64,000 nucleotides of DNA from Escherichia coli. Lineage in GTDB: Bacteria; Pseudomonadota; Gammaproteobacteria; Enterobacterales; Enterobacteriaceae. A program made the translations under genes and the position numbers. How positions within the stretch are numbered: the stretch's first letter is position 1; every line of letters begins with the position of its first letter. This document shows, piece after piece, positions 14,431 through 19,727 of the stretch. The DNA is taken from assembly GCF_003790525.1 (NCBI RefSeq), contig NZ_CP033635.1; one strand, given 5' to 3'. The notes beneath the pieces were generated by a model. It saw only the letters and a program-made list of their open reading frames with translations. It had not been told where the DNA came from and did no database searches.

Positions 14431-16569
14431 ATGACACCGCATGTGATGAAACGAGACGGCTGCAAAGTGCCGTTTAAATCAGAGCGCATCAAAGAAGCGA
14501 TTCTGCGTGCAGCTAAAGCAGCGGAAGTCGATGATGCCGATTATTGCGCCACTGTTGCTGCGGTTGTCAGCGAGCAGATGCAGGGCCGCAACCAGGTGGA
14601 TATCAATGAGATCCAGACCGCAGTTGAAAACCAGCTGATGTCGGGGCCATACAAACAACTGGCTCGTGCTTACATCGAGTACCGTCACGATCGCGACATT
14701 GAACGTGAAAAACGCGGTCGCCTGAACCAGGAGATCCGTGGTCTGGTCGAGCAGACCAACTCCTCGTTACTCAACGAAAACGCCAACAAAGACAGCAAGG
14801 TGATTCCAACCCAGCGCGACCTGCTGGCCGGGATCGTGGCTAAACACTATGCACGCCAGCACTTGCTGCCGCGTGACGTGGTGCAGGCACATGAGCGTGG
14901 CGATATTCACTATCACGATCTCGATTACTCGCCGTTCTTCCCGATGTTCAACTGCATGTTGATCGACCTGAAAGGCATGCTGACCCAGGGCTTTAAGATG
15001 GGGAACGCCGAGATTGAACCGCCGAAGTCGATCTCTACGGCAACCGCGGTAACTGCGCAGATTATTGCTCAGGTCGCCAGCCATATTTATGGCGGCACCA
15101 CCATTAACCGTATCGATGAAGTGCTGGCACCGTTTGTCACCGCCAGCTACAACAAACATCGCAAGACCGCGGAAGAGTGGAACATCCCGGACGCCGAAGG
15201 CTACGCTAACTCTCGTACCATCAAAGAGTGCTACGATGCCTTCCAGTCGCTGGAGTACGAAGTAAACACCCTGCATACCGCCAACGGTCAAACGCCGTTT
15301 GTAACCTTTGGTTTTGGTCTGGGCACCAGCTGGGAATCGCGCCTGATTCAGGAATCGATCCTGCGTAACCGTATCGCAGGCCTCGGTAAAAACCGTAAAA
15401 CGGCGGTGTTCCCGAAACTGGTGTTTGCGATTCGCGATGGCCTGAACCATAAAAAAGGCGATCCGAACTACGACATCAAACAGCTGGCGCTGGAGTGCGC
15501 AAGCAAGCGCATGTATCCGGATATCCTGAACTACGATCAGGTAGTGAAAGTCACCGGTTCGTTTAAAACCCCGATGGGCTGCCGCAGCTTCCTCGGCGTG
15601 TGGGAAAATGAAAACGGCGAGCAGATCCACGATGGTCGTAACAACCTCGGCGTGATCAGCCTGAACCTGCCGCGTATTGCTCTGGAGGCAAAAGGCGATG
15701 AAGCCACCTTCTGGAAGCTGCTGGATGAACGTCTGGTGCTGGCACGTAAGGCGCTGATGACCCGTATCGCTCGTCTCGAAGGCGTGAAAGCGCGCGTAGC
15801 CCCGATCCTCTATATGGAAGGTGCTTGTGGCGTGCGTCTGAATGCTGACGATGATGTTTCTGAAATCTTCAAAAACGGTCGTGCGTCTATTTCGCTGGGT
15901 TACATCGGCATCCACGAAACCATTAACGCGCTGTTTGGCGGCGAGCATGTGTATGACAACGAGCAGCTGCGCGCGAAAGGTATCGCCATTGTTGAACGTC
16001 TGCGTCAGGCGGTGGATCAGTGGAAAGAAGAAACGGGTTACGGTTTTAGCCTTTACAGCACGCCAAGTGAAAACCTGTGCGACCGCTTCTGCCGTCTCGA
16101 TACCGCTGAGTTTGGCGTGGTGCCGGGCGTGACTGATAAAGGTTACTACACCAACAGTTTCCACCTCGATGTGGAGAAGAAGGTGAACCCGTACGACAAG
16201 ATCGACTTTGAAGCGCCTTACCCGCCGCTGGCGAACGGTGGTTTCATTTGCTACGGCGAATATCCAAACATTCAGCACAACCTGAAGGCGCTGGAAGATG
16301 TCTGGGATTACAGCTATCAGCATGTACCGTATTACGGCACCAATACGCCGATTGATGAGTGTTACGAGTGTGGTTTTACCGGTGAGTTTGAGTGCACCAG
16401 TAAAGGCTTCACCTGCCCGAAATGTGGTAACCATGACGCCTCCCGTGTGTCGGTGACTCGCCGCGTGTGCGGATATTTAGGTAGCCCGGATGCGCGTCCG
16501 TTTAACGCTGGTAAGCAGGAAGAAGTTAAGCGCCGCGTTAAACATTTGGGGAATGGGCAGATAGGTTAA
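14431..16569 (+). CDS. nrdD: Anaerobic ribonucleoside-triphosphate reductase (class III), 712 aa
   Basis: N-terminal ATP-cone (VMKRDGCKVPFKSERIKEAI) and C-terminal glycyl-radical/Zn region (CxxC ... CPKCG). Confidence 0.96.
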   Translation: MTPHVMKRDGCKVPFKSERIKEAILRAAKAAEVDDADYCATVAAVVSEQMQGRNQVDINEIQTAVENQLMSGPYKQLARAYIEYRHDRDIEREKRGRLNQEIRGLVEQTNSSLLNENANKDSKVIPTQRDLLAGIVAKHYARQHLLPRDVVQAHERGDIHYHDLDYSPFFPMFNCMLIDLKGMLTQGFKMGNAEIEPPKSISTATAVTAQIIAQVASHIYGGTTINRIDEVLAPFVTASYNKHRKTAEEWNIPDAEGYANSRTIKECYDAFQSLEYEVNTLHTANGQTPFVTFGFGLGTSWESRLIQESILRNRIAGLGKNRKTAVFPKLVFAIRDGLNHKKGDPNYDIKQLALECASKRMYPDILNYDQVVKVTGSFKTPMGCRSFLGVWENENGEQIHDGRNNLGVISLNLPRIALEAKGDEATFWKLLDERLVLARKALMTRIARLEGVKARVAPILYMEGACGVRLNADDDVSEIFKNGRASISLGYIGIHETINALFGGEHVYDNEQLRAKGIAIVERLRQAVDQWKEETGYGFSLYSTPSENLCDRFCRLDTAEFGVVPGVTDKGYYTNSFHLDVEKKVNPYDKIDFEAPYPPLANGGFICYGEYPNIQHNLKALEDVWDYSYQHVPYYGTNTPIDECYECGFTGEFECTSKGFTCPKCGNHDASRVSVTRRVCGYLGSPDARPFNAGKQEEVKRRVKHLGNGQIG

Positions 16570-16588
16570 TCCTTCCCCCTCACCCTAA

Positions 16589-16610
16589 CCCTCTCCCTCA
16601 AGGGAGAGGG
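16589..16610. repeat. Perfect inverted repeat (10-bp arms) in the nrdD-nrdG intergenic region
   Basis: ccctctccct-ca-agggagaggg; no downstream U tract. Confidence 0.6.
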
Positions 16611-16753
16611 GACCGTTCCGTGCCCCTTCCTGATTCCCGACATAATGAATTGCCTCTGGCCAGTTTTTGTCGTCGCAAGGAGGCAAATGCGTAGCATCGG
16701 GGGACTTCGCCCGTACGCACCAGAGCATTCATGGCGTCAATTGAGAAGCGAAA

Positions 16754-17218
16754 ATGAACTTTCATCAGTACTATCCTGTCGACATCGTCAACGGTCCCGG
16801 CACTCGCTGCACCCTGTTTGTCTCCGGGTGTGTTCATGAATGCCCCGGTTGCTATAACAAAAGCACATGGCGGGTAAATTCCGGTCAGCCATTTACCAAA
16901 GCAATGGAAGACCAGATCATTAACGATCTGAATGACACTCGTATCAAACGCCAGGGGATTTCCCTCTCCGGCGGCGATCCGCTGCATCCGCAAAACGTGC
17001 CGGATATTCTGAAACTGGTACAACGCATCCGCGCCGAGTGTCCGGGTAAAGACATCTGGGTGTGGACAGGCTATAAACTCGACGAACTCAACGCTGCGCA
17101 AATGCAGGTTGTTGATTTGATTAACGTGCTGGTCGACGGCAAATTTATGCAGGATCTAAAAGACCCTTCCCTGATCTGGCGCGGCAGCAGCAATCAGGTG
17201 GTGCATCATTTACGTTAG
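16754..17218 (+). CDS. nrdG: Anaerobic ribonucleotide reductase activating protein (radical SAM), 154 aa
   Basis: ORF MNFHQYYPVDIVNGPGTRCTLFVSGCVHECPGCYN... carries the radical-SAM cysteine motif. Confidence 0.95.
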   Translation: MNFHQYYPVDIVNGPGTRCTLFVSGCVHECPGCYNKSTWRVNSGQPFTKAMEDQIINDLNDTRIKRQGISLSGGDPLHPQNVPDILKLVQRIRAECPGKDIWVWTGYKLDELNAAQMQVVDLINVLVDGKFMQDLKDPSLIWRGSSNQVVHHLR

Positions 17219-17509
17219 TCACTCATCCAGCCGTTTTGTCGCGTCTTCATAAACGGCTGAGTTTTCTCTCTTACCAATAGCTATCACCAACACGAGTAAC
17301 TCTTTATCATTGACGGAATAGACCAGGCGATATCCCAGTGTGCGCAGCTTAATTTTGTAGCAGTCCGGTAAATCCCGCAGTTTAGCCGATGGATTGCGCG
17401 GCCTTTTCAGCACATCCTCAAGCTTTTTTTTAAATTGTTCCCGGACTGTCACGCCCAGTTTTTGCCACTCTTTCAGCGCCCGCGGATCAAACGCCAGCTC
17501 ATAGTTCAT
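17219..17509 (-). CDS. RelE/ParE-family type II toxin (about 96 aa)
   Basis: Inside ORF 17219..17587 the ATG at 17507-17509 gives MNYELAFDPRALKEWQKLGVTVREQFKKKLEDVLKRPRNPSAKLRDLPDCYKIKLRTLGYRLVYSVNDKELLVLVIAIGKRENSAVYEDATKRLDE, which I recognise as closely RelE-like; it overlaps the upstream antitoxin by 11 nt. Confidence 0.85.
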   Translation of the reverse strand: MNYELAFDPRALKEWQKLGVTVREQFKKKLEDVLKRPRNPSAKLRDLPDCYKIKLRTLGYRLVYSVNDKELLVLVIAIGKRENSAVYEDATKRLDE

Positions 17510-17741
17510 CCAGTCGGACCTTAATGGCCTCTTGTGGGTTGGCCAGTCGTTCCCTGACAGTGCGTAACAAGGCTTCTTCACTATCACTGACAGTGAGCGT
17601 TTTTACCGGCATTCGTCCATTTTCCGCAACGTACTGAAACAGCAGCCGCACTGCTTCAGTAGGCGTAATATTTAATTTTTCCAGCACCGCATAAGCCTCA
17701 TTTTTCAGTTTGTCATCCAGGCGGACGTTAAGTGTGGCCAT
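17499..17741 (-). CDS. RelB/DinJ-family antitoxin (80 aa)
   Basis: ORF MATLNVRLDDKLKNEAYAVLEKLNITPTEAVRLLFQYVAENGRMPVKTLTVSDSEEALLRTVRERLANPQEAIKVRLDEL resembles RelB; RBS GGAGGC precedes the ATG at 17739-17741. Confidence 0.85.
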   Translation of the reverse strand: MATLNVRLDDKLKNEAYAVLEKLNITPTEAVRLLFQYVAENGRMPVKTLTVSDSEEALLRTVRERLANPQEAIKVRLDEL

Positions 17742-17765
17742 TATGCCTCCGGTAATTATGAAAAG

Positions 17766-17800
17766 TGTAATGCATTATAGCATTACATATGCATTACATT
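17766..17800. promoter_or_regulatory. Candidate autoregulatory operator/promoter of the relBE-like module
   Basis: gtgtaatgcattatagcattacatatgcattacatt contains three GCATTA(C/T) repeats with palindromic character immediately upstream of the antitoxin start. Confidence 0.55.
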
Positions 17801-17884
17801 CATTTCTGGAAAACGCCTCGCAAAAATGAGGACGACACGCAGGAATATGCCGTGGTGAAGATAGATATTGCGGTGATTTTACGA

Positions 17885-17925
17885 AGGGAGAAGAAAGCGT
17901 TGGGCGGTAACGTTTCACCGCCCAA
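17885..17925 (-). terminator. Putative terminator downstream of cybC
   Basis: Hairpin ttgggcggt ... accgcccaa followed on the minus strand by a moderately U-rich stretch. Confidence 0.4.
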
Positions 17926-17932
17926 TAAGGAA

Positions 17933-18322
<390 letters not shown>

Positions 18323-18374
18323 TCACTTCCTTTTTTATTATGGAGATTTGGCGCGGCAGGTCGCGCCAGTTTTT

Positions 18375-19727
18375 TTACTGCCCGGCGATTTTCATCTCCG
18401 GCAACAGCACTGAACCACACTGTATGTTACTGCGTGTTTCAATATCATTACCAACAGCAACGATATTACGCCACATATCTTTTAAATTACCTGCGATGGT
18501 GATTTCGCTCACCGGATACTGAATTTCGCCATTCTCTACCCAGAAGCCCGCTGCACCACGGGAATAATCACCGGTAATGGCACTCACGCCCTGGCCCATC
18601 AGCTCCGTCACCACCAGCCCGGTGCCCATCTCTTTGAGCATTTGTTCGAAGCTTAGCCCTTGTCCGGCAATCCGCCAGTTGTGAATACCGCCCGCATGTC
18701 CGGTGCTTTTCAGCCCCAGTTTTCGCGCCGAATAGCTGGTCAGCAGCCACTGAGTCAGGATGCCATCTTTGACGATATCGCGGCGCTCGGTGCGCACACC
18801 TTCGCTGTCGAATGGTGTAGATGCCAGCCCTTTCAGCAGATGCGGATGTTCTTCAATAGTCAGCCAGTCCGGCAGAATTTGTTTACCCAGCGAATCCAGC
18901 AAGAAGGTCGATTTACGGTAGACCGCACCACCCGCTATCGCCCCCACCAAATGACCAAACAACCCTGTTGCCACTTCATTGGCAAAAATGACCGGCGCTT
19001 TCATGGTGGAGAGTTTACGCGGTGACAGACGCGATAAAGTGCGGCGAGCACAGTCGGCCCCAACCCACTCTGGCGTTTGTAGATCGCTCATCGCACGCCC
19101 AATGGTGTAGGCATAATCGCGCTCCATATCGCCATTTTCTTCGGCGATTACACAACTGGAGAGCGAATGACGCGTTGAGCAGTAACCCTGCAACATGCCG
19201 TGGCTGTTGCCAAAAACTTTGACACCGTAGTGGCTGTTAAAGCTACCGCCTTCGGTATTGGTGATGCGTTTGTCCGCCTGCAATGCCGCCTGTTCCGCGC
19301 GGGCCGCCAGTTCAATGGCTTCATCCGGGGAAACTTCCGCAGGGTGGAACAAGTCGAGATCCGGTGCGTCAAAGGCCAGCAGCTCTTTGTCTGCCACGCC
19401 GGCACAGGGATCTGGCGAGGTATAACGGGCAATATCCAGCGCCGCCTGTACGGTGCGGGCAATGGCCTGCGGGCTTAAATCGGTAGACGATGCGCTCCCT
19501 TTGCGGTTCTGGTGATAAACAGTGATCCCCAGCGCGCCATCGCTATTGAATTCAACATTCTCCACTTCACCATAACGCGTGCTTACGCTAATGCCGGTGG
19601 TCTTGCTGACGGCAACTTCTGCACCGTCCGATTTGCCTGAGGCCAACTCCAGCGCAGTCGAAACTGCTTCTTCCAGAATCTTGCGCTGCGCTTCAACTTG
19701 AGAGATTACTTTCATTGCAAGTGCCAT
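18375..19727 (-). CDS. pmbA: Metalloprotease PmbA (TldE), 450 aa
   Basis: [33 protein letters not shown]...; synteny with yjgA and cybC. Confidence 0.95.

Follow-up and report, generated by a model that had tools for sequence, protein, structure and literature searches.

A chromosomal RelBE-family toxin-antitoxin pair beside nrdG in Escherichia coli, predicted to be an old vertically inherited neighbour of nrdDG that is being lost in Escherichia

The RelB antitoxin and RelE toxin of Escherichia coli K-12 are known from several structures (4FXE, 4V7J/4V7K and 2K29). In MG1655 they are encoded by the relBE-hokD operon (b1564/b1563), which lies inside the cryptic Qin prophage. Inventories of toxin-antitoxin (TA) systems in Salmonella list a further relBE homologue, STM4449-STM4450; inhibition of E. 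coli growth by STM4450 was reported in a paper that has been retracted and lends weak support (PMC3868539), and a mini-ORF in STM4449 was placed 57 nt before the toxin start (PMC8708949). A survey of TA systems in 950 E. coli genomes gives patterns and statistics at the level of domains only, and our literature search found no paper specific to the relBE locus that lies between nrdG and cybC in some E. coli strains.

This locus is contained in the 64,000-nt stretch of E. coli DNA that was analysed (the window), and all positions below count from its first letter. The 1.57-kb nrdG-to-cybC stretch is 100% identical to the chromosome of E. coli SMS-3-5 (NC_010498.1), for which RefSeq gives nrdG, then two opposite-strand genes, then cybC and pmbA. 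Together, the results make it highly probable that the pair at 17219-17741 is a chromosomal type II toxin-antitoxin operon of the RelBE family, inherited vertically as an old neighbour of nrdDG and now being lost in Escherichia.

RefSeq names the two opposite-strand genes 'type II toxin-antitoxin system RelE family toxin' (WP_001105432.1, 291 nt) and 'RelB/DinJ family antitoxin' (WP_000212715.1, 243 nt), and the coordinates of both match the ORFs analysed here (Table 1). The relB stop codon occupies 17501-17499 and the relE ATG 17509-17507; the resulting overlap is consistent with translational coupling of the two genes, and its geometry is common to all syntenic orthologues. The layout is that of a type II TA operon, with the antitoxin gene first, a single upstream promoter region and no internal terminator. 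The list of open reading frames starts the toxin at a GTG at 17587 (122 aa), which is too long. Because the alignment to K-12 RelE pairs residues 1-94 with 1-94, the RefSeq coding sequence has 291 nt and all orthologues begin MxYEL, the true relE start is the internal ATG at 17509.

Table 1. Features of the nrdG-cybC interval, in window coordinates
Feature	Position	Strand	Basis
relE-type toxin gene	17219..17509	-	96 aa; PDB, Pfam, TIGR02385 and RefSeq
relB-relE overlap, 11 nt	17499..17509	-	read from the sequence
relB-type antitoxin gene	17499..17741	-	80 aa, ATG start; Pfam, NCBIfam and PDB matches, RefSeq
Shine-Dalgarno GGAGG of relB	17746..17750	-	read from the sequence; kept in all orthologous loci
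Predicted operator, three TGTAATGC half-sites	17766..17799	-	repeat search, simulations, cross-genus conservation, likeness to K-12 relO
-10 box TATAAT, preceded by TGc (extended -10)	17774..17779	-	fills the 6-nt gap of the inverted pair
Spacer, cybC terminator to operator	17800..17899	-	homology with other genera up to ~17829
cybC terminator hairpin	17900..17925	-	terminator scan; right edge of the segment that differs from the empty allele (alignment)

An earlier note on this DNA, written from the letters alone, had placed a RelB-like ORF of 80 aa before a RelE-like ORF of about 96 aa with an 11-nt overlap, and had held that the toxin gene starts at an internal ATG upstream of which the ORF list overcalls it. 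All of these placements stand, the toxin being exactly 96 aa. The note's broader reading of a relBE-like type II module is likewise borne out, since family matches, catalytic residues and RefSeq names agree. The note further drew attention to an intact cybC beside the cassette. The gene is present and intact, but this has nothing to do with the cassette: E. coli normally carries an intact cybC, and an O25:H1 strain with an empty site encodes exactly the same CybC protein (WP_001232253.1). The RelBE pair itself is already known and correctly annotated under these names, and it is functionally ordinary.

Two other identities were considered for the cassette. An anti-phage defence system was dropped, as neither protein matched any PADLOC model, and a hidden RNA gene in or near the cassette was dropped, as no Rfam match was obtained at E <= 0.1 across 16000-19000.

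The spacers on either side of the interval also vary among strains. The cybC-pmbA spacer (window 18320-18374) has 55 nt in SMS-3-5 versus 183 nt in the O25:H1 strain and in the O145 strain RM9872; it appears to have a similar length (~178-184 nt) in a K-12 derivative and in E. coli E69, for which the annotated cybC start is a different one or had to be inferred. This indel of ~128 nt is independent of the TA cassette and is perhaps a repeat element. The nrdD-nrdG spacer (window 16570-16753) has 184 nt here and 157 nt in a K-12-like strain, and contains a G+C-rich palindrome, CCCTCTCCCTCAAGGGAGAGGGG, at ~16590-16612 that looks like a dispersed intergenic repeat.

The antitoxin matched two NCBIfam models over its full length, the RelB equivalog NF008412 (130.1 bits, cut-off 96) and the subfamily model TIGR02384 (73.8 bits, cut-off 45.65), and residues 1-76 matched Pfam RelB (PF04221, E = 6.5e-16). 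Among PDB chains it matched K-12 RelB (4fxe_A, E = 1e-20), and its residues 1-48 aligned to 2k29, the RelB N-terminal domain (E = 3e-13). These matches identify the protein as a RelB with a predicted N-terminal ribbon-helix-helix DNA-binding domain and a predicted C-terminal toxin-binding part.

The toxin is 62.5% identical to K-12 RelE over a global alignment. In a phmmer search of the PDB its best match was 4v7k RelE (E = 2e-34), followed by 4fxe, 2kc8 and 4v7j, and all strong matches were E. coli RelE chains. Residues R45, K52, K54, R61, R81 and Y87 of RelE, which we take from the RelE-ribosome structures to be those that position and cleave A-site mRNA, are identical in the toxin (6/6 in the pairwise alignment to K-12 RelE). 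Furthermore, K52, K54, R61, R81 and Y87 are kept in all syntenic orthologues. Loss of the conserved Arg/Tyr near the C-terminus was the observation that the earlier note had named as contrary to its reading; both (R81 and Y87) are retained. The score for NCBIfam TIGR02385 (RelE_StbE) was 28.0 bits, which exceeds the cut-off of 27.9 marginally, by 0.1 bit. Taken together, the toxin is a predicted ribosome-dependent mRNA endonuclease of the RelE/StbE type.

The names of the best Pfam matches, PF05016 'ParE_toxin' (E = 3e-14) and PF15781 'ParE-like_toxin' (E = 2e-07), would instead suggest a ParE-type gyrase poison and not an mRNA interferase. However, PF05016, despite its name, spans the entire RelE/ParE superfamily. 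No ParE structure matched at E <= 1e-3, the RelE catalytic residues are complete, and the partner is of the RelB type and not ParD, the RelB/ParD model NF050811 scoring 30 bits against a cut-off of 60. A toxin closer to ParE with a ParD partner was rejected on these grounds, the only structures matched being those of RelE, and we regard a gyrase-directed activity as extremely unlikely. Kinship with YoeB/YefM, families that the earlier note had proposed to align beside RelE/RelB, was also rejected: no YoeB/YefM chain appeared among the PDB matches and no YoeB or Phd/YefM family among the Pfam/NCBIfam hits, while the RelE/RelB families matched instead.

Upstream of relB, GCATTA occurs on the + strand at 17772, 17780 and 17791. 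Three copies within 30 nt were found in 0 of 300 first-order Markov simulations of the window. The triple GCATTA repeat that had been put forward as an operator is confirmed as three non-random copies, although it is better described as three 8-bp half-sites, TGTAATGC/GCATTACA. One pair (17766-17773 and 17780-17787) forms a perfect 8-bp inverted repeat with a 6-nt spacer, and direct half-site copies at 17780-17788 and 17791-17799 are spaced 11 nt apart. A consensus promoter scan gave no full sigma-70 match and a weak -35 element, and the relBE promoter appears to rely on an extended -10 (TGcTATAAT) with this weak -35. The operator block is nearly invariant in the orthologous loci of Citrobacter, Enterobacter and Kosakonia. 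Half-sites that bracket the -10 box and that are repeated, non-random and conserved are the features of a type II TA operator, and we predict that the block serves as one.

Between the operator and the cybC terminator, blastn against Citrobacter gave 90% identity over 70 nt, ending at ~17829; beyond this point only short colinear words were found (E ~0.1). The part of the spacer beyond ~17829 may be a remnant left when the gene cluster found between cybC and relB in Salmonella was deleted.

In MG1655, nrdG is separated from a cybC pseudogene by 44 nt with no TA genes. This agrees with the statement in the earlier note that K-12 has no TA module at this site and carries its own relBE in a prophage; the empty MG1655 site also answers the note's reservation that the cassette could turn out to be the canonical K-12 arrangement. 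Our survey covered 5426 complete E. coli genomes (20,395 E. coli records) and counted matches above ~85% DNA identity. At least part of the cassette was found in 454/5426 genomes, as 456 matches, all of them chromosomal. The full pair is present in 389 genomes (7.2%), a relB-only allele that consists of the promoter and relB in ~64, all ending at the same query position, and a toxin-side fragment only in one. The pair has been lost from about 92% of E. coli strains, including K-12.

The one fragment, from strain SCPM-O-B-7615 (raw milk; NZ_CP144926.1, 4178640-4178987), comprises 349 nt of the toxin side at 94.6% identity and resembles an allele of the E. albertii type with the 5' end of relB deleted.

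MG1655 and most other strains have an empty site. When filled and empty alleles are aligned, the segment that differs runs from the nrdG stop codon to ~17925. In place of the cassette the empty allele has an unrelated 30-nt hairpin and is not a clean excision scar, and its 42-nt spacer with this hairpin matches nothing in any compared locus. The empty allele may have arisen by deletion or through allele replacement by recombination.

These observations could be taken to mean that a mobile TA module was recently acquired in the nrdG-cybC spacer of a minority of strains and that the K-12 state is ancestral. The full pair occurs in only 7% of complete genomes, a clean block bounded by the nrdG stop codon and the cybC terminator distinguishes filled from empty alleles, TA modules are commonly mobile, and RelE genes ~63-66% identical are abundant on enterobacterial plasmids. 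The wider distribution of the cassette argues otherwise. In a scan of one genome per species, the closest relatives lay beside nrdG in several taxa: E. coli E69 and E. albertii (93-94% identical), and, with RelE 59-72% and RelB 80-91% identical, Citrobacter amalonaticus, four Enterobacter, three Kosakonia and one unclassified Proteobacteria MAG. A RelE of Salmonella enterica, recorded from 4829 blocks of the collection and from at least 1000 contigs, has the same nrdG-linked layout. In each nrdG-linked relative the order is relB, relE, then convergent nrdG and nrdD, and the gap between the relE and nrdG stop codons is 0-12 nt in all genera examined. At least five genera share this placement and orientation of the cassette beside nrdG. 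Additionally, relB, relE and nrdG are similarly deeply diverged between genera, with dS saturated (at least ~1) in all three and dN well below dS for both TA genes.

The local evidence is also against recent arrival. E. albertii carries a dead relic at the same site with the same cybC-side junction, and no plasmid copy above ~85% DNA identity was found in the 20,395 E. coli records. The cassette has no flanking repeats, integrase or transposase. A mobile-element insertion was dropped for want of flanking repeats and of plasmid copies in E. coli. Synteny thus largely refutes a recent acquisition, to which we give very little credence. Instead, shared synteny, saturated dS and low dN together indicate that the pair has long been transmitted vertically beside nrdDG and maintained there by selection. 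Judged from these sequence comparisons, the cassette has stood next to nrdG since before the Escherichia-Salmonella split, and the TA-free arrangement of K-12 is derived.

The cybC side of the locus differs among genera. In the Salmonella loci compared (L090-L093), a cluster lies between cybC and relB that encodes a Gly-rich SFCGS protein, a DUF4312 protein, a SelA-like protein, a KDGP aldolase and, at its end, a PRD/EIIA regulator; in some strains (L092, L093) an internal deletion in the cluster brings DUF4312 near relB. The 2.5 kb upstream of relB in Citrobacter amalonaticus and Kosakonia pseudosacchari contain no cybC, but their ORFs include the 3' end of a homologous regulator. The direct relB-cybC junction is already present in E. 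albertii, and the intervening cluster was therefore lost before the split of the two Escherichia species.

Within Escherichia, several further alleles were identified. In the relB-only allele the junction falls in TCATCCAG(C/T)CG, which is present at both the 3' end (17223-17233) and the 5' end (17506-17516) of relE. This allele looks like the product of a 283-bp deletion by 8-bp microhomology that removed the toxin and left relB to use the toxin stop codon. The relB-only alleles, including those of O145 strains, keep the promoter and a 79-aa RelB intact; in the O145 strain RM9872 (locus L004, 1588-1827) this antitoxin ends ...RLDE and its gene directly abuts nrdG. In E. coli E69 (locus L007, 2501-2790), RelB is 100% identical and relE carries a 2-bp deletion just after R81, with loss of Y87. 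In E. albertii NBRC 107761 (locus L016, 2440-2790), the promoter and the first ~two-thirds of relB are gone, and relE has lost 1 bp in a run of eight A (A8). The A8 run, at 17422-17429 in the window, encodes K27-K29 and is a likely slippage hot spot for inactivation of the toxin. Read side by side, the Escherichia alleles (intact, toxin frameshifted, toxin deleted, both genes dead, and absent) represent every stage of a toxin-first loss. We conclude from these alleles that the operon is being lost in Escherichia, toxin first, and that SMS-3-5 keeps the intact ancestral state.

The two proteins evolve at different rates. Within the nrdG-linked clade, RelB is 80-94% and RelE 59-82% identical, with a median dN(relE)/dN(relB) of ~2 (loci L008-L029 and L090), and RelB diverges only ~1.6 times faster than the housekeeping protein NrdG. 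The order is reversed in the comparison with K-12 RelBE, where RelB is 48% and RelE 63% identical. A toxin that evolves about twice as fast as its antitoxin could reflect weakened selection on toxicity. Carried further, the same rates would fit a pair that is turning non-toxic, in which selection favours RelB, either for regulation on its own or as an anti-addiction antitoxin that counters plasmid RelE toxins, and RelE is attenuated or dispensable. Also in favour of this reading are the ~64 E. coli genomes that keep an intact 79-aa RelB and its promoter after precise loss of relE, the unchanged RelB beside the frameshifted relE of E69, and the frequent occurrence of RelE homologues 63-66% identical on enterobacterial plasmids. 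However, the relE of SMS-3-5 and all of the inter-genus orthologues examined are full length, keep every catalytic residue and show dN far below dS. Moreover, no TA pair can decay viably unless the toxin goes before the antitoxin, and the relB-only alleles are therefore no proof by themselves of selection for RelB. We consider a shift of selection to RelB unlikely, and retain the reading of a conventional TA pair maintained beside nrdDG and decaying toxin first in Escherichia.

The junction with nrdG has one further property. The relE stop codon directly abuts that of nrdG (17216-17218), with window 17216-17221 reading TAG followed by TCA. No terminator-like site was found on the nrdG strand in 17107-17981, and hence none lies between nrdG and the cassette; a weak site with a 5-bp stem is located at 17981, antisense within cybC, and the first strong terminator at 18348, beyond cybC. 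With no terminator after nrdG, nrdDG transcripts may run antisense through relE, relB and cybC. If this arrangement were functional, strong anaerobic nrdDG transcription antisense through relE, relB and the promoter would make TA expression depend on oxygen, through antisense RNA or transcriptional interference. Together with the unusually conserved RelB, this would mark the pair as a regulatory module that has been domesticated and coupled to nrdDG, and not as a selfish addiction cassette. We mention this as a speculative scheme of low probability. The conservation of the antitoxin and the missing terminator are mild oddities that are compatible with an ordinary TA pair.

Functionally the locus carries little weight, being a RelBE pair of the textbook kind to which annotation pipelines already give the right names. 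What is new here is the context, in which the cassette is ancestral rather than acquired and is disappearing in Escherichia. Its modest value is evolutionary: it is a clear example of a chromosomal TA pair that has kept one core-genome position across genera for very long, and all stages of its loss are found in Escherichia. The alleles form a natural series for asking whether chromosomal TA pairs are kept by selection or only by addiction, and whether orphan antitoxins have a role of their own. One would naturally take the K-12 arrangement as the reference state, and the findings correct this assumption.

By analogy with the K-12 RelBE paradigm, RelB dimers would bind the half-sites through the ribbon-helix-helix domain and repress the operon, with RelE acting as co-repressor at low toxin-to-antitoxin ratios. 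The C-terminus of RelB would wrap RelE and keep it off the ribosome. Degradation of labile RelB, by Lon in K-12, would free RelE to enter the ribosomal A site, where it would cleave mRNA with K52, K54, R61, R81 and Y87 and so stop translation. We infer toxicity, neutralisation, mRNA cleavage, operator binding and Lon dependence of the present pair by homology.

K-12 relBE was not detected by DNA similarity in a sensitive blastn search, and the comparison was made at the protein level with the MG1655 region taken by coordinates. The gene order is the same in both systems, and the K-12 proteins have 79 and 95 aa versus 80 and 96 aa here. RelE is 62.5% and RelB 47.5% identical, with all RelE catalytic residues kept, and K-12 RelB, like the RelB described here, has a ribbon-helix-helix N-terminus. 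The K-12 operator relO (TTGTAATgacatTTGTAATTACAA) contains the TGTAAT core of the SMS-3-5 repeats and overlaps its promoter, and its sequence TTGTAAT...TTGTAATTACAA resembles the repeats of the present operator. The half-site here has 8 bp (TGTAATGC) with a direct spacing of 11 nt, whereas the direct spacing in K-12 is 12 nt. The K-12 genes overlap by 1 nt (ATGA) in contrast to 11 nt here. Furthermore, K-12 relBE is followed by hokD in a cryptic prophage, whereas the pair described here lies between core genes and has no third gene.

The nrdG-linked relBE of Salmonella enterica is closer. It occupies the same position, with relE convergent on nrdG, and its RelB and RelE are 89% and 73% identical, with an 80-aa RelB and an 11-nt overlap as here. 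A gene cluster stands between cybC and relB in Salmonella, whereas in Escherichia the cluster is gone and relB directly follows cybC. From tag order and geometry we infer that STM4449/STM4450 is this locus in Salmonella LT2. The published distance of 57 nt from the STM4449 mini-ORF to the toxin start fits an 80-aa RelB with an 11-nt overlap. The published mini-ORF motif ATGCATTGA is absent from the Salmonella strains compared, which read GACGCATTGCTA; an attempt to tie STM4449 to these loci through the motif was therefore abandoned, and it is the 57-nt geometry alone that agrees.

Modules of the relBE/stbDE type on plasmids of Enterobacterales (IncF and small mobilisable plasmids) encode RelE proteins 63-66% identical to the present toxin, with RelB/DinJ antitoxins. 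Plasmid relB and relE genes are annotated in Edwardsiella, Klebsiella, Salmonella and Enterobacter, some with antitoxins of the Phd/YefM type instead. These modules are plasmid-borne, whereas the cassette described here was never found on an E. coli plasmid and is, by its synteny, inherited with nrdDG.
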